From a plasmid: a stretch of DNA of 21,970 bases. Every line of letters starts with the position of its first letter. The stretch's first letter is position 1. The notes under the pieces are model-generated. The model saw only the letters and a program-made list of their open reading frames with translations, was not told the DNA's origin and searched no databases. Both the position numbers and the translations under genes were made by a program. The DNA is taken from sequence record NZ_CP014059.2; one strand, 5' to 3'. Positions 1 through 21,970 of this stretch are shown piece after piece.

Positions 1-912
1 GCTCGCCGCGCCCATAGCCGCACCGATGGCAGCGCCCGCGCCGAAATTACCGATGCCGCCAGCGTTCCCCACGCCCGTACCGGAAATGACGCCCGCGACC
101 AGCGGCGGCACGCGATTGACCAGCATGAGCAACGCCACGCAGAAAACCAGCATCACGCCCAGCTCTTCAAAGTTCAGCGTGCCGGTGTTCATCCTGGCGT
201 AGAAGCTGGAAAGCAGGTCGTTCCCGATGCCGACCAGGAGCACCATCGTCATGATCTGCACGGCCACGCCCAGCACAGTCTTGTAGTAGTTGATCGCCAT
301 GTCGGACGTCCAACGGCTTCCACCGAAGCCGAGGAAGAAGATGCCGGCGTACATCAGCAGCCAGCCCGAGACGAGCAGCAACAGCATGTTTATGGCAACG
401 ACAGCCAGCAGGATCAGGATGCCGAGGCTCAAGGCCACGCCGATGAAGCTATCCACGGGAGACCAGATCGACGAGTTGCTGAATGCCTGCTTCAAGATCA
501 TGAAGCCGATATCCACGATGCCCGAGGGTGTCACCGATGCCACCCCGGACGCCTGCTCACCGATCCGGGCCAATGACTGGATGATCGAGTTGGCGAAGGC
601 CGGGCCGTTGCGCAGCAGCCAGAGGAAGAAGCCAAAGAACAGGATGAAGCGGATGAACTCGGCGAAGAACTCGCCAATGTCGGCCTTGCGCAGCGCCATG
701 AAGCCGAACGTGAAAACCAGCGAGATCGTGCCCAGCGTCCAGAACAGGAACATCGCGGCATTCATCACCACCGTCTGCCAGGACGTGGCCCGCGTGGCGA
801 ACTCCGTCACCACCTGGTCAAGCATCCCTTGATTGGTGAGCTGGGCCGATGCGGCGGTGGAGTAAAGCGCGAGCGTGACGCCGATCAGCGCCGCCTTGTG
901 CAGTGCTTTCAT
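1..912 (-). CDS. trbL: TrbL (VirB6-like mating-pair-formation protein), N-terminal 304 codons; the ORF runs off the left edge of the window
   Basis: Minus-strand ORF starts with ATG at 912-910, overlapping the trbK stop (ATGA). The product is hydrophobic and multi-TM, MKALHKAALIGVTLALYSTAASAQ..., in the trbJ-trbK-trbL order typical of IncP-1 Tra2. Codon phase reaches position 1 exactly (..GAAS). Confidence 0.85.
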   Translation of the reverse strand, partial: MKALHKAALIGVTLALYSTAASAQLTNQGMLDQVVTEFATRATSWQTVVMNAAMFLFWTLGTISLVFTFGFMALRKADIGEFFAEFIRFILFFGFFLWLLRNGPAFANSIIQSLARIGEQASGVASVTPSGIVDIGFMILKQAFSNSSIWSPVDSFIGVALSLGILILLAVVAINMLLLLVSGWLLMYAGIFFLGFGGSRWTSDMAINYYKTVLGVAVQIMTMVLLVGIGNDLLSSFYARMNTGTLNFEELGVMLVFCVALLMLVNRVPPLVAGVISGTGVGNAGGIGNFGAGAAIGAAMGAAS

Positions 913-1175
913 GGCTTCGCCTCCTGGTCTTTCGGGTCGGCCAGTTCGAGCCAGTTCATGGGCTTCTCGGTCGGCGCGATGCCGCCGGCGGCCGGCGACC
1001 GACGCGAGCACAGCCCGGCGAATTTCTCGCGCGTACCCCTGTCCTCGATCTTCTTGATCGCCTCGATCTGGCAATTGGTGTCATTGACCTCGGGCATGGG
1101 CGGAATGGCCGGCTTGTTGTCGCAGCCAGCCACCAGCACCACCACGAGGCCGGCAAGCAGCATCGTTTTCTTCAT
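909..1175 (-). CDS. trbK: TrbK-like entry-exclusion lipoprotein (88 aa)
   Basis: Small ORF between trbJ and trbL. It has a signal peptide with lipobox LVAGC. A GGAGG Shine-Dalgarno lies upstream. Position and size match IncP-1 TrbK. Confidence 0.7.
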   Translation of the reverse strand: MKKTMLLAGLVVVLVAGCDNKPAIPPMPEVNDTNCQIEAIKKIEDRGTREKFAGLCSRRSPAAGGIAPTEKPMNWLELADPKDQEAKP

Positions 1176-1190: not shown

Positions 1191-1976
1191 TCAGCGGGTC
1201 AGTTCGAGCCAGTTCTTCGGGCTCGCCGTGCGCTCGATCCTGGATTCCCTGGAAGTCGCGCCGGCGGCCTGCTGTTGCGCCTCAAGGTCGGCCTGCGCCT
1301 GCATCCTGGCGGTCGCGGCGTTCTGCTGCGCGATCAGCAGGCCGCGAATCTGCAAGAGCTGGTTCGCCTGGTTGGCGGCGAGCTGGTTGGCGAAGCCGAT
1401 GGCCTGCATCTGCCCGGTCGCACCCTGCGCGGCCGACTGGAGCCGTTCGAGCTGGCGAGCGTCGGCGGTAAGGTTGCGCTGCTGTTGCTCCAGACCCTTG
1501 AAAAGCGCGTCGTTCGCCTTCTTCTGGCTCTCGCTCGCCAGGCGGCGGTTCTCTTCCATCGCGGCGCGCTCTGCATCCGAGCAACCGGCGGCCGAGAAGC
1601 ACGGCGAGCCACGGTAATAGGCCACGTCCTGGAACTTGCCCAGGTAGCTGTCGAGACTGCCGAGCTGGTTCCGGTAGTAGTCCAGCGTGTTGACGGCATT
1701 CATCAGCCCGTTGATCGTGGACTGCGCCTGATCCCAGATGTAGGCCGCCGGGGCCATCGTGTTTTGCAGCATGTTCTCGTACTGCTGCAATTGGGTCTGG
1801 TACTGCTCGATCTGCTTGAGCGTCTGCGCCACCGACTCGATGGCCGTCATGACGTTCTGCACCAGGTTGCCGCCGTCGATGACGGGAATGCCGGCCTGCG
1901 CCGGGGTAATGATGATGCTGCCGGCCAGGGCAGCGGCGAGCGCGGTTTTAGCCGCTAAAAGGCGGACGTGTTTCAT
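1191..1976 (-). CDS. trbJ: TrbJ (VirB5-like minor pilus/Mpf protein, 261 aa)
   Basis: Signal peptide followed by a Q-rich coiled-coil region (QLQQYENMLQNT). Gene order is as in IncP-1. A GAGG Shine-Dalgarno lies upstream of the ATG at 1976. Confidence 0.85.
   Translation of the reverse strand: MKHVRLLAAKTALAAALAGSIIITPAQAGIPVIDGGNLVQNVMTAIESVAQTLKQIEQYQTQLQQYENMLQNTMAPAAYIWDQAQSTINGLMNAVNTLDYYRNQLGSLDSYLGKFQDVAYYRGSPCFSAAGCSDAERAAMEENRRLASESQKKANDALFKGLEQQQRNLTADARQLERLQSAAQGATGQMQAIGFANQLAANQANQLLQIRGLLIAQQNAATARMQAQADLEAQQQAAGATSRESRIERTASPKNWLELTR
1947..1959. promoter_or_regulatory. KorB operator (OB) consensus TTTAGCCGCTAAA, inside trbJ codons 6-10
   Basis: Exact match to the IncP-1 OB palindrome TTTAGC(G/C)GCTAAA. 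Confidence 0.8.
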
Positions 1977-2152
1977 GGTCGAGTACCTCGATGTGATGAG
2001 CGGCTAATCTGCCCCACGACCTACCGACAAGGCTGGTCATGGGGTTGGGCCATCACGAGACAGTTCGCCACGAAAAGACTGTCAAGGTACCCGCCCAGGA
2101 CGACACCGTCGCGTCCGGGCTTACGTTTTTGTTGAACATCGGTGTAAGCTAA

Positions 2153-2180
2153 CTAGCTGCTATATAGCTTCTAGCTGCTA
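2153..2180. promoter_or_regulatory. Two direct copies of CTAGCTGCTA (2153-2162 and 2171-2180) upstream of trbJ; putative operator
   Basis: The same 10-11-bp motif recurs at 9141-9172 and 10131-10141 in other promoter regions. Confidence 0.5.
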
Positions 2181-2218
2181 ATTCGGATGCTAATCGAACA
2201 TCCGAGAATTCGCAAGCG

Positions 2219-4048
2219 TCATCGCCCGCGCTTCTTGCCCTCCTGGCGTTTCGCCTTCTTGGCTTCCATCTGCGCCCGTAGCCGCGTCTCGCGCTGTTCC
2301 AGCTCGGACGGCGCGGGCCTGGCCGGCTGCTGAACTTTGGCCGGCGGCGGTGTCGGGGTGGCCTGGGTCGGCGCTTGTACCGGCCGCTGGGCTTCGCCCT
2401 CGATGTGCAGCCCGTCGAGCTGGCCCAACGTGCGCAGGCCGTGCCGGCGATGTGGCGGCGGCTCCTGGCCGACAGGGGGCACACCTGGCCGGCGCTTGGC
2501 CTGGGCCTTGGTGGCCTCGGCCTGCCGCCGGCTTTCCAGTGCCGGATCGGCGAAGGTGATGGGGAGCTGGGCATCGACGGCCGCCCGGATCACGGCGGCC
2601 TTGAACTCCACGCTGCCGCTGACAGTGATGCGCTCGCCGTAGCGTTCCATTGCCAGGCGCAGCGCCGCCGCCACGCCGGCGCGGTCGGCCTGGCTGGACA
2701 CGGCCAGGCGCTCGCCGTCATCGCGCACGGCCGAGCTGCCGGCGCGGTAGATGATCGTGCCCTTCTTCGTGATGCTGTCGATCACCGGGGCATGGCCGGG
2801 CTTCGCCTGGCCGTCGCCCTGGATGGTGTCGCCCTTGAGGCCCTGGGCCGCCTCGCGGGCGCGCAGCGCATCGAGCGCCTGGCCGTCGCCGGCCGTTGCC
2901 TGCTGCTTGAGCCAGTCGGCCCACGGCCGCCGGCGGTGCTCGTTGTAGATCGCCGCCCGCTCCTGGTCGTGGCGCTTGTGGATCGCCTCCAGGTCGGCCC
3001 GCAGAGCGGCGCTGGCCTGGGCATACAGCAGCTTCTTGGTCAGCCGGCCATCGGTCAGGTGCTTGATGGCCGCCCGCCGGGTGGCCGCCGCCTTCTTGGC
3101 GTGCTCGATGGCCCGATCCTTCCGGCGCTTCGCCTCGGCCAGCACGCCGGCCCTGGCGGCTGTGAGGGTCTGCTGTGCGCCCTTGTACCGGGCGTAAAGC
3201 TCGGTCGTATCCAGGCCGCCGCGCAGACGCATCGGCCGGCCCTTCTGGTAGTTGCGCCGTGCCGGCGCGGCCTGGCGCTCGGGCGACGCCTCGAACGTGC
3301 CAAGCCGCTTTTCCAGGGCGGGCTTGGACAGGTCGCGGGCCAAGGTGCTGGCCTTGATGATCGTGCCGTCGCCGGCCTCGATGACCAGGCCGTTACCGCG
3401 TGCGCGCAGCGCCAGGCCGTTGTCGCGCATGACCTGGTGCAGCTCGGCCCAGCTTGCCGCGTCCTTGATCTCGTCCAGGCACTCGCGCTTGATCCAGCCG
3501 ACCAGGCTTTCCACGCCGGCGTGCTGCTCCAGGTCGCCAGCCCTGGCGGCCGCGCCGCGCTGGCGTGGTTCGTGGTTGTCGCGTTCCAGGCCGTAGTCGC
3601 GTTCCAGGGTCGTGCAGAGGTCGGCCAGCGCCCGATGCGAGTAGTACGGCTCCTGCATCGTGCCCCTGGTCGGGTGAATCTTGTTGATGGCGATGTGGAT
3701 GTGCAGGTTGTCGGTGTCGTTATGCACGGCGCTGACGCGCTGATGCTCGCCCAGGCCCAGCCCGTCGCAGATGCGGGCCTCGATCTGCCGCAGGGTGTCG
3801 GCGCTCGGCTGCTCGCCGGCGCGAAAGCTGACGATCAGGTGATAGGTCTTGTCGCCCTTGGCCCGCGTGTTGGCCTGCTGGGTTGCCAGTACCTCGGTGA
3901 TTGCATCGCGCACGGTGTCGGCGGCGCAGTTCGTGACCTGCACCTGGCCCAGCCGGTGGTCTTTGCTCTGCGCGTCGGTGACGTAGCGCACCAGGCCGGC
4001 GAAGTCGGACTTGCCCAGCGAGCGCATGGGCACGTGCTTGGCGATCAC
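2219..4048 (-). CDS. traI: TraI relaxase, MOBP / IncP type (609 aa)
   Basis: N-terminus MIAKHVPMRSLGKSDFAGLVRYVTD is near-identical to RP4 TraI, with the catalytic Tyr at position 22. The His motif HNDTDNLHIHIAIN is present. The start overlaps the traJ stop. Confidence 0.93.
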   Translation of the reverse strand: MIAKHVPMRSLGKSDFAGLVRYVTDAQSKDHRLGQVQVTNCAADTVRDAITEVLATQQANTRAKGDKTYHLIVSFRAGEQPSADTLRQIEARICDGLGLGEHQRVSAVHNDTDNLHIHIAINKIHPTRGTMQEPYYSHRALADLCTTLERDYGLERDNHEPRQRGAAARAGDLEQHAGVESLVGWIKRECLDEIKDAASWAELHQVMRDNGLALRARGNGLVIEAGDGTIIKASTLARDLSKPALEKRLGTFEASPERQAAPARRNYQKGRPMRLRGGLDTTELYARYKGAQQTLTAARAGVLAEAKRRKDRAIEHAKKAAATRRAAIKHLTDGRLTKKLLYAQASAALRADLEAIHKRHDQERAAIYNEHRRRPWADWLKQQATAGDGQALDALRAREAAQGLKGDTIQGDGQAKPGHAPVIDSITKKGTIIYRAGSSAVRDDGERLAVSSQADRAGVAAALRLAMERYGERITVSGSVEFKAAVIRAAVDAQLPITFADPALESRRQAEATKAQAKRRPGVPPVGQEPPPHRRHGLRTLGQLDGLHIEGEAQRPVQAPTQATPTPPPAKVQQPARPAPSELEQRETRLRAQMEAKKAKRQEGKKRGR

Positions 4049-4422
4049 GATTGCCCGCCTCGCGGCCGCACCACGCTTTCCGCGATGGTGCTGATCTTGT
4101 CCTGGGTCGCCTCGATCCGGGCCAGCAGCGCCCGGATGGTGTCATCGCCGAAGCGGGCCGTGCGCGGGTCGTCGGTCAGCCAGAGCTTGAGCAAGCCGCC
4201 CAGCCGCCCGAGGTCGCCATTCACGCGCACCAGGTCGCGCACGTTCTCGAAGTCGGTCACGCCTTTGACCTGGTAGCCCTGACCGACCGCCAGCAGGTAG
4301 GCGGACGTGCTCATGCCGGCGGCCTGGGCGTTGGCCTCGATGGCGGCCCGTTCGTCCGGCAGGCAATAGACCTTGATGGGCGTGCTGCCCTTCCTCGTTA
4401 CCTTGTTCTCGTTGGCCTCCAT
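4045..4422 (-). CDS. traJ: TraJ oriT-binding relaxosome protein (125 aa)
   Basis: The segment IKVYCLPDERAAIE...GMSTSAYLLAVGQGY...INGDLGRLGGLLKLWLTDDPRTARFGD is almost identical to RP4 TraJ. Confidence 0.92.
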   Translation of the reverse strand: MEANENKVTRKGSTPIKVYCLPDERAAIEANAQAAGMSTSAYLLAVGQGYQVKGVTDFENVRDLVRVNGDLGRLGGLLKLWLTDDPRTARFGDDTIRALLARIEATQDKISTIAESVVRPRGGQS

Positions 4423-4508
4423 CTTGGCGTCCTCTGTCGTTGCCGGCGGCCGCCGGCTGGCCCCGCAGGGCAGGATGCCCCGTTGAGCGCCGCAGGCGCG
4501 AATAAGGG

Positions 4509-4568
4509 GAAGTGAAGAGGATCACCATGCTTGCATGGTGGGCCTACTTCACACATCCTGCCCTCTAT
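4509..4568 (+). other. oriT core: imperfect inverted repeat 4511-4552 and nic region CTTCACacATCCTG|CCC, with the nick predicted between 4560 and 4561 on the + strand
   Basis: The RP4 nic region is CTTCACCTATCCTG|CCCGG. The neighbouring AATAAGGGgAaGTGAAGA and GGTGGGCCTACTTCAC are also conserved. It lies between divergent traJ and traK, as in IncP-1. Confidence 0.9.
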
Positions 4569-4777
4569 TCAGCGTTGCATTCAATAAGGAAACTATACAC
4601 GCGCCATTGTGGATTTGCATGGTATCTAGCAAGGAAACCTAGCGCCTATGGATGCAACACGGCAAAATGCAGGGAAATCCGCTTGCTCGCAGGACTTAAC
4701 ACGCTGTTTCAGCGCACATTCCATGTGCTTTCCACTAGCTTTACACACATGAACCCGCGCGCATTACATAAACAGGA

Positions 4778-5206
4778 ATGAAGCCGATGGGAACCCGATA
4801 CACCGATGAACTTGCCGCCTGGGCCGATCAGAAGGCCGAGAAGAAGCGCCGCCAGGACGCGGCGGCAGTAGCGTTTCTGGCGGTGCGCGGGGATGTGGTC
4901 GAGGCAATGGAAGCCGGCTACGCGCTGACGACGATCTACGATCACATGCACGAAACCGGCCGGGTGAAAACCAGCTATGAGACGTTCCGCCGGCACGTCC
5001 AGCGGTTCATCAAGGCAGCGCCGGCCGACACCGCGCCGCCGACACCGAAGGCCGCCACCAGGTCGGCCAGCAACTCGCCGACCACCGTTCCAGCCGTCAC
5101 GCCAAAGCCGGCCGTATCAGCTCCGGCCAGCCCTGCCAGCGAGCAAGCCGGGAAGATTCCCAGCTTCAATTTCAACCCGACGCCGAACAAAGAGGACTTG
5201 CTGTAA
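4778..5206 (+). CDS. traK: TraK oriT-binding/bending protein (142 aa)
   Basis: YTDELAAWADQKAEKKRRQDAAAVAFLAVRGDV...SYETFRRHVQRFIKA...FNFNPTPNKEDLL matches RP4 TraK. Confidence 0.9.
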   Translation: MKPMGTRYTDELAAWADQKAEKKRRQDAAAVAFLAVRGDVVEAMEAGYALTTIYDHMHETGRVKTSYETFRRHVQRFIKAAPADTAPPTPKAATRSASNSPTTVPAVTPKPAVSAPASPASEQAGKIPSFNFNPTPNKEDLL

Positions 5207-5240
5207 GCCGCCCCTGATGGGGGGATGAACACCAAGGGAA

Positions 5241-5414
5241 GACAGTCGGCCGGCCCCTCAAGTGTCAATAACCCCATGACGTGAAATCGCCCCCCCCCCT
5301 GCGCCGCCCACCGGCCAACAGATCAGGACGGCCAAACCTGGCCGCTAGGGGCAGGCCCGCGCCCCTCAAATGTCAATATCCGGGCCTCCCCCGAGTTCGT
5401 GAAATCGCCCCCCC
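5241..5414. repeat. Two imperfect direct-repeat units of about 60 bp, each made of a TrfA-type iteron (5253-5267 GCCCCTCAAGTGTCA; 5361-5375 GCCCCTCAAATGTCA) plus CGTGAAATCG and a C tract (C10 at 5290-5299; C7 at 5407-5413)
   Basis: The iterons are the reverse complement of the IncP-1 oriV iteron consensus TGACA(C/G)TTGAGGGGC. No trfA gene is present in the window. Confidence 0.75.
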
Positions 5415-5425
5415 TGGTGGGCCGG

Positions 5426-6346
5426 TCACTCGCCGCCTGGCTTCTTCCTGGTCGCAGGCTTCGCCTCGGCCGCCGGCGGCGTGATACGGGCCAGCAGCGC
5501 GGCAGATTGCTCCTTGAGCGTGTCGAGTTGCCCCGCCATGCGGGCAGCTTCCTCACGAGCCTGCGCGGTGGCCTTCGCGGCCTGATCGCGCTCGGCCTGC
5601 GCTGCCGTCAAGCGTTCTGCCATACGCTGCGCCTCGACCGCTGCGGCCTTCCGCTGCTCCTGGTGCGCTTCGCGCTCGGCATCGGCCTTGGCGCGGACGG
5701 TCGCCAGTTCCTCGCGCACCTGGTCAAGTTGAGCGGCGACAGCCTGGCCGGCTTTCTGCTGGTCGGCCAGCGCCCGGCGTGCTTGGTCTGCGTCCTCGTG
5801 GGCGCGGTCAAGTTCGGTGCGCAGCTCGCCGGCCCTGGCCTCGGCCGTGGCGGCCCGCTCACTGGCCGCTGCCAGCTCTTGGCGAACGGCGGTGAGTTCC
5901 TGGGCCAACTTTTCGGCGGCGGCCTTCTCAGCGGTCAGCTCGGCCGTGGTCGCCTCCAGCTCGCCGGCCTGGCGCTCGAAAGCCTCGGCCAGCTCCTGCC
6001 GCATCGCGTCCAGCTCGGCCCGCTCTGTTTCCCATGCGGCCTGTGCGCTGCGCAGGGATTCGTTCGCCAGCTCCTGGGCCTGCTGCCAGATCGTCGCCAC
6101 GGCGGCGCTGCTGGCCTGCTGCACGACCTCCGGCACCGCCACGGCCACCGGGGCGGCCTGGGCAGTCTGCGCCCTGCGCCATTCCTTCATCACGGCGCTG
6201 GCTGCGTTCATATCTACGCGGGCGGCCCGGCGCACCGCATCGACCGTGGGCATCGTCTCGCGGCCCGACTGCTCGAAAAGATCAGTGGCGGCGGCAATGA
6301 TGCGCTCGCGCACGTCGGCGGGGATTTGGGGGGCTTGCGGTGTCAT
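5426..6346 (-). CDS. kfrA: KfrA-like alanine-rich coiled-coil DNA-binding protein (about 306 aa from the ATG at 6346)
   Basis: Long Ala/Glu/Gln/Arg-rich coiled coil. The N-terminal wHTH-like segment is VDAVRRAARVDMNAASAVMKEWRR. It is convergent with traK, as in IncP-1. An autoregulatory palindrome lies upstream. Confidence 0.8.
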   Translation of the reverse strand: MTPQAPQIPADVRERIIAAATDLFEQSGRETMPTVDAVRRAARVDMNAASAVMKEWRRAQTAQAAPVAVAVPEVVQQASSAAVATIWQQAQELANESLRSAQAAWETERAELDAMRQELAEAFERQAGELEATTAELTAEKAAAEKLAQELTAVRQELAAASERAATAEARAGELRTELDRAHEDADQARRALADQQKAGQAVAAQLDQVREELATVRAKADAEREAHQEQRKAAAVEAQRMAERLTAAQAERDQAAKATAQAREEAARMAGQLDTLKEQSAALLARITPPAAEAKPATRKKPGGE

Positions 6347-6368
6347 GGCATCGGCTCCGGTGGATAAG

Positions 6369-6399
6369 ATAAGAAGAATAATATTATTATTCTTCTTAT
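6369..6399. promoter_or_regulatory. Perfect 31-bp palindrome ATAAGAAGAATAATA-T-TATTATTCTTCTTAT in a nearly 100% A+T island; putative KfrA operator / kfrA promoter
   Basis: The 15-1-15 palindrome lies 23-53 bp upstream of the kfrA ATG. GATAA repeats and a GGTGGATAA DnaA-box-like motif (6359-6367) flank it. Confidence 0.7.
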
Positions 6400-6624
6400 T
6401 ATGCAAGCCATTATTTTCCGCATGGCCTGGATCAGCCCGGCCGGGAGCGCGTCGGGGGTCGAAATTCGGGCCTGGGCGGGCCGTGGCGGCGTTTTCCAGG
6501 GTTGGCGGCACTATCCCCTACCCTCGCCCGGTTTCGGGCGTCCTGGGCGTTTCTACGCGGCCGATCTCCGGCGCAAACGAAAAAAGCCAGACCACGGCCG
6601 GCCTGGCTTCCCCTTGGCGTCAGA

Positions 6625-6637
6625 TTTAGCGGCTAAA
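6625..6637. promoter_or_regulatory. KorB operator (OB) TTTAGCGGCTAAA
   Basis: Exact OB consensus. It lies about 280 bp upstream of the kfrA start and immediately 3' of the small gene 6640..6948. Confidence 0.8.
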
Positions 6638-6639
6638 AA

Positions 6640-6948
6640 TTAGGTCGCGGCCTGTAGGCGCTTCACGGCTGAAACGAAGTCCAGGCGCAGCAGGTGCATG
6701 GCAAGGTCGATGGCACCACCGCCGCCCTTCTCTGCGCGGGTGTCGTACCACTTCGGCCCGGTCGCCAGCAGCTCCACGCCACCGCCACCCAGCGCGACAT
6801 TCACCCGCACCGTGGCCTTGTCCTTGATCGGTTTGAAATCCGGGTCGTACTTCCAGTAGAGGCCCAAGAGATCGAGCGTGGCCGTTACCTGCATCGCGTG
6901 CAGGCGTGCCAACAACTCCGGCGGGAAAGCTCGCCGGGCGCGGCTCAT
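6640..6948 (-). CDS. Small protein (102 aa from the ATG at 6948) with a degenerate, cysteine-less CHC2 primase zinc-finger-like segment
   Basis: High GC3 real-gene codon usage. KWYDTRAEKGGGGAIDLAMHLLRLDFVSAV resembles the zf-CHC2 tail CFGCGagGDvIDFvm but lacks the cysteines. It is adjacent to the PrimPol rep gene. Confidence 0.45.
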   Translation of the reverse strand: MSRARRAFPPELLARLHAMQVTATLDLLGLYWKYDPDFKPIKDKATVRVNVALGGGGVELLATGPKWYDTRAEKGGGGAIDLAMHLLRLDFVSAVKRLQAAT

Positions 6949-6949
6949 G

Positions 6950-7280
6950 ACAACACCCCGGCGAGCTGGACGAGGGAGCCGCCCTTCGGGCGGCGGGCTA
7001 CTCCGGGCCTTCGGCCCCTCCGCGCCGTTCCGGCGCTGCGCGGCCCGTGGATAACTTGCAAGCAAGTTACCCACCGCCCTTGCCGGCTACTCGCGTTATA
7101 TAAACGCAGGGGGCTACTCCGGCCTACGGCCGAGGCGGACAAGCCGCTAGGCTTCGCCATTAGTAATACGGACGGACTTGTCTCAAGCATTGTGGCCGCC
7201 CTCGTCACTTCCGGCGATGCTGGCCAGGTCGGCCGCCTGGGCCTGTAATACGGATGGACTTGTCTCACTCGCCGGCGCGG
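6950..7280. other. Candidate vegetative origin (oriV) / rep-proximal repeat region
   Basis: It contains a UUCG-loop hairpin at 6978-6994. It has a 21-22-bp direct repeat GGGCTACTCCGG(G)CCT(T/A)CGGCC at 6995-7016 and 7111-7131. A DnaA-box-like cGTGGATAA sits at 7046-7054, next to the palindrome TAACTTGCAAGCAAGTTA at 7052-7069. An A+T palindrome GCGTTATATAAACGC is at 7093-7107. A 23-bp direct repeat GTAATACGGA(C/T)GGACTTGTCTCA at 7163-7185 and 7245-7267 overlaps the 3' end of rep. Confidence 0.4.
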
Positions 7281-8565
7281 CTGGCTTGCCAGCTCGATAC
7301 CAGCTCGCCCGGCTCATACCGAGGGCTTCCCAAGGCTTCTGCCGGCTCAAGGAGCGGCTTTCGTAGGTTTGCCGATCTACCGCCCCAGCAGCCCGCCGGC
7401 GGGCCGTGTGGCGCTCTCTGTCGCGCTCCTTCGCCATATCCGAGCTGATGAGCGTGCGGAGCTTGCGCTGTTCCTCGTCGGTGATCTGGAACAGGCTGAT
7501 GATGGTGTCGTTCTTGGGCGTGTAGAGCGGGGAAAGCTGCTTGCCGCCGAACTCCACTTTCTCGCCGGCCTCGTGCGCCTTTGCCTTGGCGTACAACGTC
7601 ATCAGCTCCTTGGAGCGATACGACCAGGCCGGATCAAGCTCGCCGGCCAGCGCGGCCGCCTCGTGGTACATCTGCCCGCTGTGCGTAGCACCAGACAGCA
7701 GCAGGAAGTTGAGACGCCAGAAAAGATGCTGCATCCGCTCGCCTTCCCTGACGCCACCGCGCAGCTCGGCCAGCTTGCGCAAGTCCTCCAGGCGATCCCA
7801 TGCGAGCTGCCGACCGGAGAAGCCGCGCAGGTTGTCGGCCTTGCCGCCTGGCAATAGCTTGAGCTGCCGGCGTTCGGCACGGTCGCGGCGTTGCTGCTCG
7901 ATGTCCCAGCGGGCTACTGGCAGCAGCATTTCAGCCAGGTACTCGAAACCGTAGCGGACGGGCTGGCCGTCCTGGCCGTGCTCGACATGCACCACGCGGC
8001 ACACATCGCCGCTCTTGGTATTCACGGTGCTGACCAGGCGCAGCACGCGGCTTGCGTCCTTGGCCTGGGGGTCGGCGCCGAGGCCGGCCAGGCGATCGAC
8101 AAGATACCGCTGGCAGGCGTTCCAGCGCGGCAGCGCCTGGCGCGGCAAGGTGCCGTCCAGCAGCCACTTGGCTTGTATGCCGCGGCCGCTATAGACCAGC
8201 AGCGAGGGCGTGGGGATGCCTTCCTGGGCGCAGTGGTACAGCACGGTGGCCGCCAGTTGCTCCGGCGTCCTGCCGGTGGCCCACGGCTGCCGGTAGGTGT
8301 CCAGGTCGGCGAACAGCAGCCCGACACGCGCCAGATTCACCACGCGCCGGTTAGGGCGCATGAACTCGGCCTGCGTCAGCCAGGTGTCGCGGGTCTGATC
8401 GACCATGCCCAAGATCGTGGGCATGTCTGTGAGCCTGTATGAGTCTTGCCGCTTGTCCTTCCCTACCGCGACCAGGAGCGAGAAAAAGCCCGTCCTGGCC
8501 GTGTCATGGTAGGTGCCGGCCTCGTCGGCCGGCTCGAACAAGGCAAGTTGTGCCTGTCCTGCCAT
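7183..8565 (-). CDS. Replication initiator with archaeo-eukaryotic primase-polymerase (PrimPol) motifs (about 460 aa from the ATG at 8565); not TrfA
   Basis: PrimPol motif I is VGLLFADLD, motif II is YSGRGIQAKWLL and motif III is VLRLVSTVNTKSGDVCRVV. N-terminal QLALF resembles the QL[SD]LF beta-clamp motif. An AAGGGG Shine-Dalgarno lies upstream. The promoter region carries a KorA operator. Confidence 0.6.
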   Translation of the reverse strand: MAGQAQLALFEPADEAGTYHDTARTGFFSLLVAVGKDKRQDSYRLTDMPTILGMVDQTRDTWLTQAEFMRPNRRVVNLARVGLLFADLDTYRQPWATGRTPEQLAATVLYHCAQEGIPTPSLLVYSGRGIQAKWLLDGTLPRQALPRWNACQRYLVDRLAGLGADPQAKDASRVLRLVSTVNTKSGDVCRVVHVEHGQDGQPVRYGFEYLAEMLLPVARWDIEQQRRDRAERRQLKLLPGGKADNLRGFSGRQLAWDRLEDLRKLAELRGGVREGERMQHLFWRLNFLLLSGATHSGQMYHEAAALAGELDPAWSYRSKELMTLYAKAKAHEAGEKVEFGGKQLSPLYTPKNDTIISLFQITDEEQRKLRTLISSDMAKERDRERHTARRRAAGAVDRQTYESRSLSRQKPWEALGMSRASWYRAGKPAAPASETSPSVLQAQAADLASIAGSDEGGHNA

Positions 8566-8630
8566 AACCCCTTCCCGCACGGAATCCGCGCGTGACTCTT
8601 GCCATTGAAGGGGTCAGGCCGTAGAATGAG

Positions 8631-8642
8631 GTTTAGCTAAAC
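8631..8642. promoter_or_regulatory. KorA operator (OA) GTTTAGCTAAAC in the rep promoter region, flanked by 10-bp inverted repeats GAATGAGGTT (8624-8633) / AACCTCATTC (8668-8677)
   Basis: Exact 12-bp IncP-1 OA consensus, 66-77 bp upstream of the rep ATG. No korA gene is present in the window. Confidence 0.8.
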
Positions 8643-8730
8643 AGTCGTGGGTGCGGTTGAACCCATAACCTCATTCATCGGCTGTCGTGTCTATCAGCTC
8701 GCCAAAGCTGGTAGGCCCGGAACCCCCGCC

Positions 8731-8766
8731 AAAGCCCCGTCGCCAAACGGGGCTTTTGCATTTTTA
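8731..8766. terminator. Rho-independent terminator hairpin AAAGCCCCG-tcgccaaa-CGGGGCTTT followed by TGCATTTTTA; bidirectional
   Basis: Perfect 9-bp stem and a T tract. It lies at the 3' end of the minus-strand gene 8764..9078 and separates that gene from the rep promoter. Confidence 0.6.
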
Positions 8767-9078
8767 CGGCTCGATGCCGGTGCCACCCAGCAACTCGCCA
8801 CCTTTGCGGGTCAGCGTCTTGGGCTTCCACCCGGCCACGTCCGCCTCGAAGCGGTAGATGCCGTGCTGAATCAGCAACGACGCCGCCGCGTCAATCGTGC
8901 GGAAGTAGCGGGGGCCGCCCCGATACTGCCCAAGGATGCGATTTTCTCCGCCGATCCGAAGCGCCAGAACCAGGCCCTTCTCTGCAACGGTGACAGTCGC
9001 ACCCTGTACGCCGCCCACCAAAACGACCTCCTTAAATGCGGTCGGATTGATGACAGCCTTTGAATCAAACGTAATCAT
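8764..9078 (-). CDS. Hypothetical protein (104 aa), function unknown
   Basis: Real-gene codon bias. Its own promoter region (9079-9161) has a CATAAT -10 and overlaps the CTAGCTGCTA motifs. A terminator lies downstream. The opposite-strand ORF 8647..9063 has poor codon usage. Confidence 0.5.
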   Translation of the reverse strand: MITFDSKAVINPTAFKEVVLVGGVQGATVTVAEKGLVLALRIGGENRILGQYRGGPRYFRTIDAAASLLIQHGIYRFEADVAGWKPKTLTRKGGELLGGTGIEP

Positions 9079-9140
9079 GCCCCACCTTCGCAGCAGTGTC
9101 CAGCATTAACGAAAAATGCAGGTGTCGGTTTTCGATTATG

Positions 9141-9172
9141 TAGCTGCTACCTAGCAGCAAACTAGCTGCTAG
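9141..9172. promoter_or_regulatory. Three alternating-orientation copies of the TAGCTGCTA motif (TAGCTGCTAcCTAGCAGCaaaCTAGCTGCTAG); putative operator
   Basis: It overlaps the parG stop and the promoter of gene 8764..9078. The same motif is at 2153-2180 and 10131-10141. Confidence 0.5.
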
Positions 9173-9491
9173 ATTGTTCGTAATGGTCAAGGGCCTTTTC
9201 CAGTATCTCGACCAGCAGCACACCTTCACGCTGCGCCAGGGCGCGGATGCGGGCATCCCATTCCGGCGTCACCCGCGTGGCGAACTGCACCGTGCGGTTC
9301 GTCTTGCGGGCGCTCCGGCCGTCGATCTTCTTGGCCGCCGGCGCTTGCGGTGGTGGGTTGGCGGCGGCCGGCCTGGCTACCGGTGCAACCTCCGGCGCGG
9401 TCAGGTTCGTGCTGGCCTCGTCCAGCGTCGGCGGTGCGCCCAGCTCGTCGCGCCGGCCTTTCAATTTCTTGAGCTTGGATACGTCAGCCAT
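9162..9491 (-). CDS. parG: ParG-like ribbon-helix-helix centromere-binding protein (109 aa) with a flexible basic N-terminal tail
   Basis: C-terminal RHH is RTVQFATRVTPEWDARIRALAQREGVLLVEILEKALDHYE. It overlaps the upstream parA by 8 nt. Confidence 0.7.
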   Translation of the reverse strand: MADVSKLKKLKGRRDELGAPPTLDEASTNLTAPEVAPVARPAAANPPPQAPAAKKIDGRSARKTNRTVQFATRVTPEWDARIRALAQREGVLLVEILEKALDHYEQSSS

Positions 9492-10116
9492 TTGTCACCC
9501 GGTCGATGAGCGATTGAATGAGTGTGTCGGCCCGCTCGTTCAGGCCCGCAAAGCGGGTTTCTGTGATGCTGTGGCCGGTGTTTTGCGCCTGGCGGTAGGC
9601 CGGCCGGTCGCGCAAGCTCCCATCCAGGACGGTGTAGCCGGCCTGCTGTAAATAGACCCGCGCCGCGACCTCTTCCGCCGGCGTGCCGATGCGGTTGAGG
9701 GCGAACGCCAGGCGGTCGTTCGGGACACCGGCCTTCGTCAGCGCGTGGAACTCGCGCACGGCCGGAATGAGGTCATCCCTCGATGCGCCGGACGGCTGCA
9801 CGATCAAATCGGCAGCGCGGGCTATGTCGAGCGTCGCCGAGCTGGTGCGGGCCGGCCCGTCGATGATGAGAAGGTCGTAACCCTTGGCCGCTTCCAGGGC
9901 CTGCGCGGCCGTGGCGAACGCCTCGACGGACACCACGGGTTCAATGCCCTGGGAAAGCCGCAGGCGGTGCCAATCGACAGCAGTTCCCTGCTGTGTATCC
10001 AGGTCTGCTACCTTCACGCGCAAGCCGCCGGCGGCCGCTTCGCGTGCAAGGGCACGCGCCAGGGTGGATTTCCCTACGCCGCCCTTCTGTGAGACGAATG
10101 CGACAATCGCCGCCAT
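9484..10116 (-). CDS. parA: Small ParA/ParF-type partition ATPase (210 aa)
   Basis: Deviant Walker A VSQKGGVGKST. The size and the parA-RHH operon structure match type Ib partition systems. Confidence 0.85.
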   Translation of the reverse strand: MAAIVAFVSQKGGVGKSTLARALAREAAAGGLRVKVADLDTQQGTAVDWHRLRLSQGIEPVVSVEAFATAAQALEAAKGYDLLIIDGPARTSSATLDIARAADLIVQPSGASRDDLIPAVREFHALTKAGVPNDRLAFALNRIGTPAEEVAARVYLQQAGYTVLDGSLRDRPAYRQAQNTGHSITETRFAGLNERADTLIQSLIDRVTNG

Positions 10117-10124
10117 AATTTAGC

Positions 10125-10192
10125 CCCTATCTAGCTGCTAGGTAGCAACGATTATAAGATAGAAGCTAGATACAAGATAGTAGCTAGATAGA
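10125..10192. repeat. Centromere/operator-like array upstream of parA: CTAGCTGCTAG, then repeated AGATAG and CTAGATA units
   Basis: Clustered short direct repeats lie between the parA start (10116) and the KorB operator. A TATAAT -10 (10151-10156, minus strand) is embedded in them. Confidence 0.5.
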
Positions 10193-10193
10193 T

Positions 10194-10206
10194 TTTAGCC
10201 GCTAAA
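10194..10206. promoter_or_regulatory. KorB operator (OB) TTTAGCCGCTAAA
   Basis: Exact consensus. It overlaps the resolvase stop codon and lies 78 bp upstream of the parA start. Confidence 0.8.
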
Positions 10207-11107
10207 GTTTGCGCCGCCGCGCCCGCTCGGCGTCTGCCAGGTCGCCGGGCCACGTCGCCAGCTCGTCATCGGTGAGGGCCGCCAGGATTTGCGGCAGGTT
10301 TTGGGTTCGGTACGGGGGCATCGGCAGATCGGCGACTGGGCCTTCATCGTCCAGAAAAGCCGGCTCGGGCAGCTCGGCCGCGCCCTGCTCCACGTCGGCC
10401 GCCGCGCCGGCGTCGGCCTCGGTCAATGCGTCCTCCACGAAAGCGCCATGCCTGGCCGCCTCGGCCCGGCTCATGTCACGGCTGGCCCAAATCCGTTTGA
10501 CCTGGGCCACGCTGCACCCGGCCAGCTTGGCAGTCTCCGCGATGCTCTGGCCGATGCTGCGCAACGCGATCACCTGGGCGCGCAGCTTCGGATCGGCCCG
10601 CCGGCCCTTGTAGCGGCCGTCCCGCTTCGCCAGCTCGATGCCCTGGCGCTGCCGCTCGCGCCTGTCCTCGTAGTCGTCGCGGGCCATCTGTAGGGCCAGC
10701 TTCAAAAGCATGTCCTGGACGGATTCCAGGACGATCTTGGCGACGCCCTGGGCCTCGGCCGCCAGGTCGGATAGATCGACCACGCCAGGGACGGCCAGGC
10801 GCGCACCCTTGGCCCGGATCGAGGCCACCAGGCGCTCGGCCTCGGGCAAGGGTAGGCGGCTGATGCGGTCGATCTTCTCGGCAATGACCACCTCGCCCGG
10901 TTGCAGGTCGGCCACCATGCGCAGCAGCTCGGGCCGGTCAGCGCGTGCGCCGCTGGCTTTCTCGCGGTAGATGCCGGCGACGTAGTACCCGGCGGCCTTC
11001 GCGGCCGTGATGATCCCTTCCTGGCGTTCAAGGTCTTGCGCGTCGGTGCTGACGCGCAGATAGACCCGCGCCACCATCGGCGCGGCTGCTGGCTTCGTCC
11101 TGCTCAT
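10202..11107 (-). CDS. Serine recombinase / resolvase (301 aa from ATG 11107, AAGGAG Shine-Dalgarno) with a long acidic C-terminal extension
   Basis: N-terminal catalytic motif YLRVSTDAQDLERQ. The HTH is GQSIAETAKLAGCSVAQVKRIW. It is divergent from the TA module across the res region, like the RK2 par/mrs layout. Confidence 0.85.
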   Translation of the reverse strand: MSRTKPAAAPMVARVYLRVSTDAQDLERQEGIITAAKAAGYYVAGIYREKASGARADRPELLRMVADLQPGEVVIAEKIDRISRLPLPEAERLVASIRAKGARLAVPGVVDLSDLAAEAQGVAKIVLESVQDMLLKLALQMARDDYEDRRERQRQGIELAKRDGRYKGRRADPKLRAQVIALRSIGQSIAETAKLAGCSVAQVKRIWASRDMSRAEAARHGAFVEDALTEADAGAAADVEQGAAELPEPAFLDDEGPVADLPMPPYRTQNLPQILAALTDDELATWPGDLADAERARRRKL

Positions 11108-11125
11108 TCTGGCTCCTTTGGGCAT

Positions 11126-11337: not shown

Positions 11338-12225
11338 TTAGAACCGGAGGGTTTCGCCATCCTCGGGAATCAGCACCCGTTGCTCAATTTTATGGTCTTG
11401 CACAAACTCACGCAGGGCCTTGCGGGTGAGTGACATGTGGTTCACCGCATCCATGTGCACGGCCACGATGGCCGCATGGGGCGCTGCCTTGGTGGCCTGG
11501 AGTGTGTCCTGCTTGCCCATGATGATGGGATGCTCCTCAAAGCCACTCACGAGCGCGCTCCCTGTGTTGAGGATCACCACGTCGGGCTTGTGCAGCTTCA
11601 GTGCCTGATCCACTTCCGGACGCCACACCGTGTCCCCCGCCACGTAGACCGTCTTTGCCTGCGGCGCCGCAAACACGACCCCCATGACCGGGCCCATGAA
11701 CGCCGCACGCGCGGGGTCGGCAAACCACAAATCCGTGCCGTGCTGACCGCCGGTCCTGCTCAGCTTCACACCCTTGAAGGTGGTGGAGCCGGTGAGCACG
11801 CGGACGTCCTGGAAGCCTTGGCTGCGAATGAGCTTGGCATCCGCTTCGTTCTGCGTGAAGACCGGCAGGCTCTTGGGGATCGCCTTTTGAGCGGCCTCAT
11901 CCCAATGGTCTGTATGGGTGTGGGTCACGACCACTGCTTCCACGCTGTCCAGCACATCCTTCACTGAAAAGGGCAGCGCGACCAAGGGGTTTCTCAGTTC
12001 GCTGCGGTAAGTGCCCGGGAAGCCGGGGAACGCCCCTTGGTCCGACAGCATCGGGTCGACCAGGAAGGTCGTGCCAGCAAAGTCGATCTTCACCGTGGCG
12101 TTACGGATCTGCTGCACTTTGACCGAGGTGCCGGTGACGGTTGCCGGTGCAGACCAGGCGGTTGCCGCAAAGGCGCCCAGCGACAGCGAGACCAGCAGGG
12201 GAGTGAAAGCTTTCATCGAGAACAT
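11338..12225 (-). CDS. Secreted MBL-fold metallo-hydrolase (start ATG 12225 or 12216)
   Basis: HxHxDH motif VVTHTHTDHWD. Signal peptide MKAFTPLLVSLSLGAFAATAWSA. Confidence 0.7.
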   Translation of the reverse strand: MFSMKAFTPLLVSLSLGAFAATAWSAPATVTGTSVKVQQIRNATVKIDFAGTTFLVDPMLSDQGAFPGFPGTYRSELRNPLVALPFSVKDVLDSVEAVVVTHTHTDHWDEAAQKAIPKSLPVFTQNEADAKLIRSQGFQDVRVLTGSTTFKGVKLSRTGGQHGTDLWFADPARAAFMGPVMGVVFAAPQAKTVYVAGDTVWRPEVDQALKLHKPDVVILNTGSALVSGFEEHPIIMGKQDTLQATKAAPHAAIVAVHMDAVNHMSLTRKALREFVQDHKIEQRVLIPEDGETLRF

Positions 12226-12285
12226 GGGGGACACCCGCGTTGAGTTGAAGAGGCCTCCATGGTCGTGTCTCTCGCCCCTTTGTAG

Positions 12286-12306
12286 AATTGACCCAAGCGT
12301 CAATAT
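12286..12306. promoter_or_regulatory. Inverted repeat ATTGAC-N6-GTCAAT in the divergent MBL / GlxA intergenic region; putative operator
   Basis: Perfect 6-bp arms at 12287-12292 and 12299-12304, between divergent starts 12225 and 12341. Confidence 0.35.
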
Positions 12307-12340
12307 TCGAAAGAATTGGGCCACTTCACCCAGGAGCTTC

Positions 12341-13297
12341 ATGTCAAAGCGACTTCCCCTCGTGGCCCTCGTGAGCTACCCGCACTTCAGCCCGTTTCAC
12401 TTTGGCGTGCCGTTCTTGATCTTCAGTGCGCAGTTGCCCGAGCAGGCGCTGTTCGATCTGAAGATCGTCACGCCAGGCGGCACCGCGCTGGCGGCCGAGC
12501 GGGCCTTGTTCGTCCAACCCGATGGCGGGCTGGAGTTGCTGGCCAAGGCTGACATCGTCGTGATCCCCGGTTGGCATGATCTGGCCGAGCGTCCTGAGCC
12601 CGAGCTGATAGCCGCCTTGCGCCAGGCCCGCCAGCGGGGTGCCCATGTGGTGGGGCTGTGCTACGGCGCGTATGTCCTCGCCTATGCGGGCTTGCTGGAT
12701 GGCAAACGCGCATCCACACACTGGATGGCGGAGCAGGATTTCAAGCTGCGCTTTCCGCAAGTGCAACTGGACATGAATGCGCTGTATGTCGATGACGATG
12801 GCCTGATCACATCGGCGGGAACAGGGGCGGGCCTGGACTGCTGCCTCTACATCGTGCGCAAGTTCTACGGCCAGAAAACGGCCAACAAAGTCGCCCGGAT
12901 GATGGTGGTGCCGCCTCACCGCGAAGGAGGACAGGCTCAGTTCATTGAACAGCCGCTTGCCCCTTCCACGCAAGATGCCAGGATCAATCAGTTGCTGGAC
13001 CATTTGCGCCAGCACCTGAACCAGGTCCACTCGGTCGATGCGCTGGCCCAACGCGCCGCCATGAGCCGGCGCACGTTCACGCGCCACTTCAGCAAGGCGA
13101 CCGGCATGTCGTTGGGAGACTGGCTCATCAACGAACGCCTGCAGCGGACCCGAGAGCTGCTGGAAAGCACCACCTTGCCGGTGGAAGCCATCTCTGACCT
13201 GGTCGGATTTCAGAACCCGACCTCGCTGCGTCAGCACTTCAAGCGCAGAAACCAGGTCAGTCCCAGTGAATGGCGAAGAACCTTTGGGCGCGCGTGA
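12341..13297 (+). CDS. GlxA/FtrA-type transcriptional regulator: DJ-1/PfpI (class I glutamine amidotransferase-like) domain plus C-terminal AraC HTH (318 aa)
   Basis: AGGAG Shine-Dalgarno 5 nt upstream of ATG 12341. Nucleophile elbow VGLCYGAY. C-terminal AraC-type HTH. The long upstream ORF extension (from 12011) is rejected. Confidence 0.75.
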   Translation: MSKRLPLVALVSYPHFSPFHFGVPFLIFSAQLPEQALFDLKIVTPGGTALAAERALFVQPDGGLELLAKADIVVIPGWHDLAERPEPELIAALRQARQRGAHVVGLCYGAYVLAYAGLLDGKRASTHWMAEQDFKLRFPQVQLDMNALYVDDDGLITSAGTGAGLDCCLYIVRKFYGQKTANKVARMMVVPPHREGGQAQFIEQPLAPSTQDARINQLLDHLRQHLNQVHSVDALAQRAAMSRRTFTRHFSKATGMSLGDWLINERLQRTRELLESTTLPVEAISDLVGFQNPTSLRQHFKRRNQVSPSEWRRTFGRA

Positions 13298-21220: not shown

Positions 21221-21970
21221 TCACGCCTCCGATTTACCGTGCTCGCGGTTGGCGAACGCGGCCACTTCGTCATCAGGATCGGCAGCAGCCGAATCGGCCC
21301 CTGCCAGGTTGTTGCCGCCGAATGTCGGCACCGCCTCGACAGCGGCGGCCTGGTCACTCTCCGCACTCGCCCTGATAGCCGCCGCGATCTTCCCGCCGGT
21401 GGTGTCAGCGATGCGTTCGGCGGCGGCGTCGCGCATGCTGGCGGCCTTGGCCTTCGCAACCTCGCCGACGCCTTGCATCAGGTTCGCGCCGGCGTCGGCC
21501 GTCACGCGGCCCGCCGTGCCAAGCGCCGATGCGGCCGAGGCCAGCAAGCCGGGGCCGGTGCTGCCTGGTGCGGCCTGCTGGCCGCCTTGCTGGGCTTTCT
21601 TGCTGCCGGCTTCGTCGCCACCCTTCGAGCTGGGACCTCCACCCGATTTACCGGGCTGCTGCCCATTGCTTCCACCCGAGCCGCTGGCACCGCTGCCCGA
21701 GCTGCTGCCGAAACCGGCGGCCTGTGCAAGTGGTGTAGTGGTGCCCGCACCTGAGCTTGACCCGCCACCAAAGCCAGCAGCTTGCGCAAACGAGCCTGCA
21801 TCGCTGCCGGGGTCGGAGCCGCCACCGAGCATGGGCATTCCGCCCGACTCGCCGCCGGCGCTCGATCCCGCTTTCTCGAACGCTGCCTTGATGGCCGACA
21901 TGCCGCCGGCGGCCGAGGTTGCACCACCCATCACGGCCGCACCGGCTACGCTTGCCGCACCAGCGGCCAT
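21221..21970 (-). CDS. trbL: C-terminal Gly/Ala/Ser-rich low-complexity part of TrbL (249 codons), continuous with 1..912 if the molecule is circular
   Basis: The ORF reaches the right edge of the window in a phase that joins the codon ending at position 1. The low-complexity composition continues seamlessly (..GAAIGAAMGAAS + MAAGAASVAGAAVMGG..). Combined length is 554 codons, about the size of IncP-1 TrbL. Confidence 0.65.
   Translation of the reverse strand: MAAGAASVAGAAVMGGATSAAGGMSAIKAAFEKAGSSAGGESGGMPMLGGGSDPGSDAGSFAQAAGFGGGSSSGAGTTTPLAQAAGFGSSSGSGASGSGGSNGQQPGKSGGGPSSKGGDEAGSKKAQQGGQQAAPGSTGPGLLASAASALGTAGRVTADAGANLMQGVGEVAKAKAASMRDAAAERIADTTGGKIAAAIRASAESDQAAAVEAVPTFGGNNLAGADSAAADPDDEVAAFANREHGKSEA

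Follow-up and report, generated by a model that had tools for sequence, protein, structure and literature searches.

The stretch of DNA analyzed here (record NZ_CP014059.2; 21,970 bp, hereafter the window) is a complete circular plasmid. The sequence across its end-to-start junction is contiguous in p3-T1, an Acidovorax plasmid, and trbL (553 aa) runs over the circle junction uninterrupted by a stop codon. Since the window is a complete circle, the motif scan described below spans the whole plasmid. The backbone belongs to a mobilizable MOBP11 family that includes pMATVIM-7 and pPE52IMP. Two elements are dealt with: an 11-bp palindrome, CTAGC-N-GCTAG with a free central base, which is present at the partition (par) locus and in front of the transfer gene trbJ, and a 109-aa protein encoded in the par locus, which is the candidate binder of the palindrome. 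The gene order at the par locus is res-parA-parB-parC-rep, parB being the open reading frame (ORF) of the 109-aa protein. The features concerned are as follows.

10131-10187, minus strand: parA promoter/operator array
9484-10116, minus strand: parA, encoding a short Walker-type partition ATPase of 210 aa
9162-9491, minus strand: 109-aa ORF (parB), candidate centromere-binding protein ("ParB109"), overlapping the parA stop
9140-9172, minus strand: parB-end array, three abutting 11-bp units, overlapping the parB stop codon
8764-9078, minus strand: parC (orf104 in the original prediction), encoding a ParC-family partition-associated protein
2142-2181, minus strand: trbJ-upstream site cluster, in the traI-trbJ spacer directly upstream of the conserved trbJ leader
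1977-2146, minus strand: trbJ 5' leader, approximately 170 nt
1191-1976, minus strand: trbJ
909-1175, minus strand: trbK
21221-21970 plus 1-912, minus strand: trbL, running over the circle junction

The 10-mer CTAGCTGCTA is found in four exact copies (2153, 2171, 9162, and 10131), where 0.02 would be expected, and none of 100 shuffles reaches four. The 9-mer TAGCTGCTA is found in five copies (2154, 2172, 9141, 9163, and 10132) against an expectation of 0.08. Over the range of motif counts, 4-8 copies are observed versus 0.02-0.14 expected. The extended consensus of the site is approximately ATCTAGCWGCTAGAT. The motif is confined to three loci of the replicon, namely, the traI-trbJ spacer, the end of the 109-aa ORF, and the parA upstream region; the sole further matches with up to one mismatch are two isolated degenerate copies at 5338 and 7140. 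The motif noted in the original prediction is thus well above chance expectation. The count of five copies given there holds for the 9-mer, but the copies listed sum to six and include both GTAGCTGCTAC (9140-9150) and the degenerate CTAGCAGCAAA (9151-9161). The alternating orientation described for these copies is merely an alternation of T and A at the central base, since the site is palindromic. Chance recurrence of a functionless motif has only the shortness of the motif in its favor. It is already refuted by the copy numbers, and both the positions of the sites, kept in relatives down to about 45% protein identity, and an invariant block within the variable traI-trbJ spacer are against it, leaving a practically negligible probability.

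In the parA array, the perfect palindrome CTAGCAGCTAG (10141-10131) is located between the -10 element and the ribosome-binding site, and the degenerate units CTAGCTTCTA (10169-10160) and CTAGCTACTA (10187-10178) are positioned 18 bp apart on the minus strand. The TATAAT -10 hexamer of parA (10156-10151) is bracketed by motif units. The sigma-70 scan, under its strict rule, called no promoter at the parA promoter. The layout of the array is the same in four relatives (L002, L003, L010, and L012).

The parB-end array consists of the units GTAGCTGCTAC, CTAGCAGCAAA, and CTAGCTGCTAG. An array of three 11-bp units occupies the equivalent place in L002, L003, and L010, and TTGC-type counterparts do so in L004-L007. 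The position of this array relative to its neighbors should be noted. Regardless of the next gene (parC, a zeta-toxin operon, parM, or repA), the array remains attached to the 3' end of parB and is therefore part of the parAB cassette. On these comparisons, it is better read as a second cis, centromere-like site of the cassette than primarily as an operator of the orf104 promoter. There is a weak promoter-like match between the array and parC, and the array may affect parC expression too. We read the arrays on the two sides of parAB as the putative operator/centromere pair of a type Ib system.

Motif arrays flank parAB in unrelated replicons, independent of the neighboring genes. In Xanthomonas plasmids, whose proteins are 56-90% identical, the palindrome lies upstream of parA and an array of three 11-bp units follows the stop codon. 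In enterobacterial IncI/K, IncFII, and other plasmids and in Xanthomonas citri pXAS24 (38-52% identical overall), CTTGC-N-GCAAG is present at both positions. The motif, regarded as plasmid-specific in the original prediction, is instead the apparent cognate site of a ParB family that is widespread, with members in Xanthomonas, Pseudomonas, Nitrosospira, Acidithiobacillus, Sphingomonas, and others.

In the parA product, Pfam matches to CbiA/AAA_31/ParA begin at residue 3-5, and the protein is without an N-terminal DNA-binding domain; its score against the NCBIfam model ParA_partition is 111.8 bits, under the 180-bit cut-off. The parC product scores 121.9 bits against NF041544 (cut-off 95). The 109-aa protein itself, labeled "hypothetical protein" in RefSeq, gives no usable match in Pfam, NCBIfam, or PDB by single-sequence and profile searches. 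It gives no hit to the ParG profile PF09274 even at E <= 1, and hhalign against a ParG yields a nonsignificant probability of 1%; the partition proteins of L002, L013, and L072 do match PF09274. The 109-aa family has 220 or more relatives, which share an N-terminal peptide, MADVSKLK..LG.PP..EAS.NL.APE, a variable Pro/Ala-rich linker, and a conserved C terminus, RTVQFATRVTPEWDARIRALAQREGLLLVEVLERALDAYE.

The C terminus of the 109-aa protein resembles a ribbon-helix-helix (RHH) domain, with an RTVQFATRV strand followed by two helices. In the AlphaFold2 model, the last 35 residues have a pLDDT (predicted local distance difference test) of about 90 and form a short extended segment plus two helices. 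The top Foldseek match is the ParG structure 1P94, followed almost only by RHH proteins; the structural scores are weak, as would be expected of a 40-residue monomer of an obligate dimer. These models weakly suggest an RHH fold. Publications on this plasmid family report that parB is absent, and the maintenance module of such plasmids is described as having neither parB nor repeats (PMC9501424). The gap in annotation concerns a family of hundreds of proteins.

The amino acid at position 69 of this family, predicted to be a DNA-facing residue of the strand, is related to the form of the site. The set used for this comparison comprises 57 genome loci plus plasmid loci, with identical proteins counted once (about 47 distinct relatives). 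Proteins with Gln69 (30 distinct) are accompanied by 219 TAGC and 26 TTGC half-sites, whereas those with Ala or Pro at this position (17) are accompanied by 70 TAGC and 133 TTGC half-sites (Fisher p = 2e-35; Mann-Whitney p = 3e-8). The split is sharper in full sites, with 71 TAGC-type and no TTGC-type sites in the Gln class versus 8 and 39 in the Ala/Pro class. These counts point to consistent covariation between the site and residue 69, as distinct from many independent events.

The distribution of the motif among plasmids with a common transfer backbone should also be noted. Two sister backbones have traI-trbJKL with other partition proteins, one of the RHH_10 family in Achromobacter xylosoxidans (CP014066; L011) and one of the ParG family in Enterobacter cloacae (NC_021087; L013). 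Allowing up to one mismatch, CTAGCNGCTAG has no copy in these two or in Klebsiella oxytoca p2990 (L014), all of which have the same tra/trb backbone and other partition proteins. It is present at both par and trbJ in the plasmids that have the 109-aa protein (the window, L010, and L012). The partition centromere-binding protein had been proposed as the binder, and the comparative evidence favors the same choice: the 109-aa protein is the best candidate, and the motif is very probably its binding site.

The original prediction named only one further DNA-binding protein nearby, a 56-aa RHH protein; the plasmid also encodes KfrA, TraJ, TraK, a ParD-like RHH antitoxin, and a resolvase. We weighed whether the repeats could be bound by another plasmid protein, that is, Rep (with the repeats as iterons), the product of a 102-aa ORF, the 56-aa RHH-like protein, the ParD antitoxin, or the resolvase. 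The repeats do adjoin the resolvase gene and lie near rep, and L009, L010, and L012 have both the motif and the 102-aa ORF. The 56-aa ORF and ParD are nevertheless both present in L011, which is without the motif, while the motif carriers L010, L012, L009, and L002 are without the 56-aa ORF and L012 and L002 are without ParD. The arrays accompany parAB beside quite different rep genes and in the absence of a resolvase, and the 102-aa ORF is also found on plasmids with the kind of ParC that is paired with ParG in pLNU-11 (OW969826.1). On this co-occurrence pattern, the iteron, res-site, and other-protein explanations were rejected, and the 56-aa protein is excluded as a candidate; we give binding by any such protein very little credence.

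A second competitor comes from outside the plasmid. The palindrome could be a variant KorB-type operator (OB) that is read in trans by a helix-turn-helix (HTH) ParB/KorB protein of a co-resident IncP-1 helper. The 9-bp core TAGC-N-GCTA is the same as that of the KorB operator and is common to the three OB-like sites of the plasmid (TTTAGCSGCTAAA), such sites abut the arrays, and IncP-type tra and trb genes are present without korB. The motif here is CTAGC(T/A)GCTAG, however, and not the TTTAGC(C/G)GCTAAA that, together with korB, marks an IncP-1 KorB regulon. The ORFs that were scanned with Pfam and NCBIfam include no KorB/ParB-HTH gene, and none turned up in RefSeq annotations of plasmids nearly identical to this one. 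Replicons without IncP context also have CTAGC-type arrays on both sides of parAB homologues, the form of the site covaries with an amino acid of the RHH-like protein, and in L011 and L013 the OB-like sites remain although the CTAGC sites vanish together with the 109-aa protein. Reading by KorB is accordingly very improbable.

The OB-like sites are a separate matter. Three perfect ones are present (1947-1959, 6625-6637, and 10194-10206): one in codons 6-10 of trbJ, one upstream of kfrA, and one just upstream of the parA array and abutting it. One KorA-type operator (OA), GTTTAGCTAAAC, is located at 8631-8642, and no korA or korB gene is found on the complete plasmid. In sister plasmids with other partition proteins, OB-like sites persist by the par arrays and before the ribosome-binding site of rep, so that their binder is not the par protein. 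It may be the KorB of a helper IncP-1 plasmid acting in trans.

The trbJ-side cluster contains the sites TTAGCAGCTAG (2181-2171) and ATAGCAGCTAG (2163-2153), 18 bp apart, a spacing equal to that of the degenerate pair at parA. They are accompanied by an overlapping degenerate unit (2164-2174) and the abutting TTAGCTTACAC (2152-2142). When the spacers of the window, L010, and pMATVIM-7 are compared, 54 of 246 columns (22%) vary, and the block 2126-2181 is invariant (P about 1e-6), a pattern indicative of purifying selection. Marinobacter pMAD49b retains TTTAGCTGCTAGA at the equivalent place.

Immediately downstream of the cluster, the trbJ leader begins at ACACCGATGTTCAAC. It is conserved in seven backbones with 39 predicted pairs, 11 of which show compensatory changes (alignments A5 and A6). 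An Rfam scan found only traJ-II and PtaRNA1 and gave no match for this leader, which may be a cis-regulatory RNA. With the structured leader starting directly behind the cluster, the transcription start must lie at the cluster or upstream of it.

The role of the cluster is suggested by the sister plasmids. For both L011 and L013, 8-mer mapping within each plasmid places the best match of the variable segment that precedes the trbJ leader at the plasmid's own parA promoter/operator, and the two segments are 73% (L011) and 81% (L013) identical in pairwise comparison. Both promoter hexamers (-35 and -10) and the repeat boxes of L013 are preserved at trbJ, while the spacer has diverged; the sigma-70 scan called no promoter in this plasmid. 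L011 has a TTGTCG-16-TATAAT promoter directed toward trbJ. Exact copies of the L011 and L013 repeats are found only at par, at trbJ, and, in L011, in the traK-kfrA spacer. Three unrelated RHH partition proteins thus each appear to have their own operator before trbJKL, and this comparison is the strongest argument that supports control of the operon by the partition protein. By analogy with these plasmids, we infer an operator function for the trbJ-side sites of the window.

Some observations weigh against such control, or against the evidence for the binder. The sigma-70 scan of 1900-2300 found no promoter, and, relative to trbJ, the orientation of the trbJ-side array is the reverse of that at the parA promoter. 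In K. oxytoca p2990, a small RHH gene takes the place of par repeats before trbJ. The Gln and Ala/Pro classes at position 69 are probably few clades, so that the statistics overstate the number of independent events. The lack of a detected promoter and the inversion would suit a cluster that is bound without any transcriptional role, either as an extra centromere or pairing site or as the scar of a par-array recombination that joined two plasmid arcs, kept as an aid to partition-complex assembly. Two arrays lie exactly at both junctions of the tra-kfrA-rep-par and res-accessory-trbJKL arcs, and type Ib systems with several dispersed cis sites exist, such as that of pMF1 (PMC3235114). The segment duplicated in L011 and L013, on the other hand, includes trbJ-directed promoter hexamers, with a divergent spacer in L013, and this is the signature of a working promoter and not of a bare binding site; the conserved structured leader directly after the cluster also weighs against a role without transcription. 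We judge a role without transcription to be unlikely, though it deserves serious consideration.

K. oxytoca p2990 was considered as a fourth case of re-wiring and rejected, because par repeats are missing in front of its trbJ. Its traI-trbJ spacer (12065-12530) contains a gene for a 60-aa RHH antitoxin-like protein, which may be an alternative local regulator of trbJKL.

Returning to the partition protein as regulator, we propose that CTAGC-N-GCTAG is the recognition site of the 109-aa RHH-type protein in a type Ib parA-parB-parC locus and that the protein also acts at trbJ; we put the probability of this reading at roughly 65%. Binding, repression, and the direction of the effect are predictions that draw on the motif statistics, the positions and conservation of the sites, and their covariation with the protein. 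Dimers would bind cooperatively over the -35 region, spacer, and transcription start of the parA promoter, and the par operon would thereby be repressed (autoregulation). They would also occupy the three 11-bp units of the parB-end array, and both arrays would form the partition complex that is moved by the short ParA ATPase, with the N-terminal peptide of the 109-aa protein contacting ParA. At 2142-2181, the protein would set the transcription entering trbJ-trbK-trbL, either by repression of a local promoter or by a block of read-through from traJ-traI. Repression is predicted because the boxes in the sister plasmids overlap promoter hexamers, as at parA. Expression of the transfer and entry-exclusion genes would then track the level of the partition protein.

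The wider form of this proposal is that an unnamed RHH centromere-binding family without a Pfam model reads the 11-bp palindrome, that its specificity for TAGC or TTGC is switched by one β-strand residue (Gln versus Ala/Pro), and that the trbJKL promoter region has been re-fitted with the operator of each plasmid's RHH partition protein in the pMATVIM-7, pAX22-like, and GIM-1-plasmid backbones. We hold the chances of this wider statement to be evenly balanced.

The term global regulator, used in the original prediction, overstates the case. One site cluster does lie outside par, before trbJKL, but it is the single extra-par target here. Relatives have extra sites before an XRE pseudogene (L009), before GIY-YIG/kfrA (L012), and in the traK-kfrA spacer (of the L011 repeat type). 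In L009 (Xanthomonas fragariae pNBC2815-21), a motif array and an OB-like site at 2440-2510 precede the XRE-family pseudogene. The same plasmid has a second, unannotated parA remnant with its own motif array (7311-7420); the sites at 7312-7351, tried as a further extra-par cluster, are the promoter of this remnant and not a regulon member.

Judging from its genes and their order, the locus is a putative pRA2/IncP-6-style type Ib parABC with a different centromere-binding protein. In ParF/ParG of TP228 and parABC of pRA2/IncP-6, a short Walker-type ParA is likewise encoded before a small protein, there an RHH dimer whose N-terminal tail is flexible and here a putative counterpart, and the short promoter repeats of those systems are established as serving both autoregulation and the centromere (PMC3235114). 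A ParC-family gene and then rep follow downstream in pRA2/IncP-6 as here, and an IncP-6-like plasmid has the order ParA-ParG-ParC with a ParC of the same family. In contrast, no sequence similarity to ParG can be detected in the 109-aa protein, and its putative site is a palindrome of 11 bp, built on a GCNGC core in place of ACTC tetramer boxes. A second array follows the gene here, and the third lies in front of trbJ at a distance of 7 kb. In par2 of pB171 (parC1-parA-parB-parC2), cis repeat arrays on both sides of parAB are bound by a small ParB (PMC4270457), and the downstream array belongs to the cassette here as parC2 does there. The protein and the repeats are different, however, and in pB171 the partner in cross-talk is another par locus and not a set of transfer genes.

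Functionally, the closest system is omega of pSM19035. This RHH protein binds the centromere in a type Ib-like system and also represses several promoters outside par, where it acts via arrays in which short repeats are either direct or inverted (PMC3074150, PMC2441792). Unlike the present system, it belongs to a Firmicute plasmid, uses heptad repeats, and targets copy control and toxin-antitoxin genes, not the type IV secretion system (T4SS) or entry exclusion.

The proposed system also resembles KorB of IncP-1, a partition protein that controls conjugation genes from dispersed plasmid sites. An analogy with KorB, with a different protein and site, was drawn in the original prediction; KorB has 12 sites and acts at a distance, whereas a single extra target is present here. 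The centromere-binding ParB of NAH7 (IncP-9) also controls conjugation genes from dispersed sites (PMC12421886). Both are large HTH ParB proteins of type Ia systems, in contrast to the probable RHH protein of this plasmid, and NAH7 ParB activates, whereas repression is predicted here. ArtA of pSK41 and StbA of R388 are small plasmid proteins that couple segregation with transfer-gene regulation (PMC2777438; bioRxiv 10.1101/2022.04.29.490116), but ArtA does not serve as centromere-binding protein in a ParA system, and StbA is an HTH protein that acts with no NTPase encoded by the plasmid. In the literature searched, neither the motif nor the 109-aa protein is described for the pMATVIM-7 family. 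The kind of system itself is known; no earlier description appears to exist of the protein family, the site, the candidate specificity residue, or the repeated re-wiring of trbJKL.

The remaining genes mentioned above are located as follows.

2219-4048, minus strand: traI
4045-4422, minus strand: traJ
4778-5206, plus strand: traK
5426-6346, minus strand: kfrA
6640-6948, minus strand: 102-aa ORF
7183-8565, minus strand: rep
10202-11125, minus strand: resolvase gene

Several further features of the plasmid were observed. Between rep and parC, on the strand opposite to these genes (8599-8766, plus strand), a strong promoter-like site, TTGCCA-17-TAGAAT (10/12 matches), precedes the OA-like palindrome, and a terminator hairpin (8731-8756) lies about 100 nt further on. 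The arrangement is conserved in K. oxytoca p2990 and has no Rfam match; it is a candidate small countertranscript or copy-control RNA. Downstream of rep, GGCTACTC occurs three times (6996, 7085, and 7112) together with a 20-bp palindrome (7050-7069), which makes 6990-7130 a candidate origin with iterons; the literature on this family reports that no iterons were found (PMC9501424). The convergent traK-kfrA spacer contains two direct repeats of about 45 bp, 5254-5295 and 5362-5413 (CCCCTCAA[A/G]TGTCAAT ... GTGAAATCGCCCCCC), with the degenerate CTGGCCGCTAG at 5338 between them. At the equivalent position, the A. xylosoxidans plasmid has its own par repeats plus an OB-like site. Just upstream of kfrA, a 32-bp AT-rich palindrome (6369-6400) overlaps a TTGCAT ... 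TATTAT promoter-like region and is probably the site of KfrA autoregulation.

MOBP11 plasmids of 14-60 kb spread the VIM, IMP, GIM, and KPC carbapenemases in Pseudomonas, Achromobacter, and Enterobacterales. With the candidate centromere-binding protein, its site, and a possible specificity residue named, an annotation gap is filled and targets for incompatibility or curing strategies become available. With one protein, three sites, and a putative one-residue specificity switch, the system is a simple one for the study of partition-transfer coupling in mobilizable plasmids. The concept of such coupling has precedents in omega, KorB, StbA, ArtA, and NAH7 ParB. If the trbJKL promoter region has indeed been re-fitted repeatedly, as in the wider form of the proposal, selection would act to slave these T4SS and entry-exclusion genes to the partition protein that a mobilizable plasmid carries.

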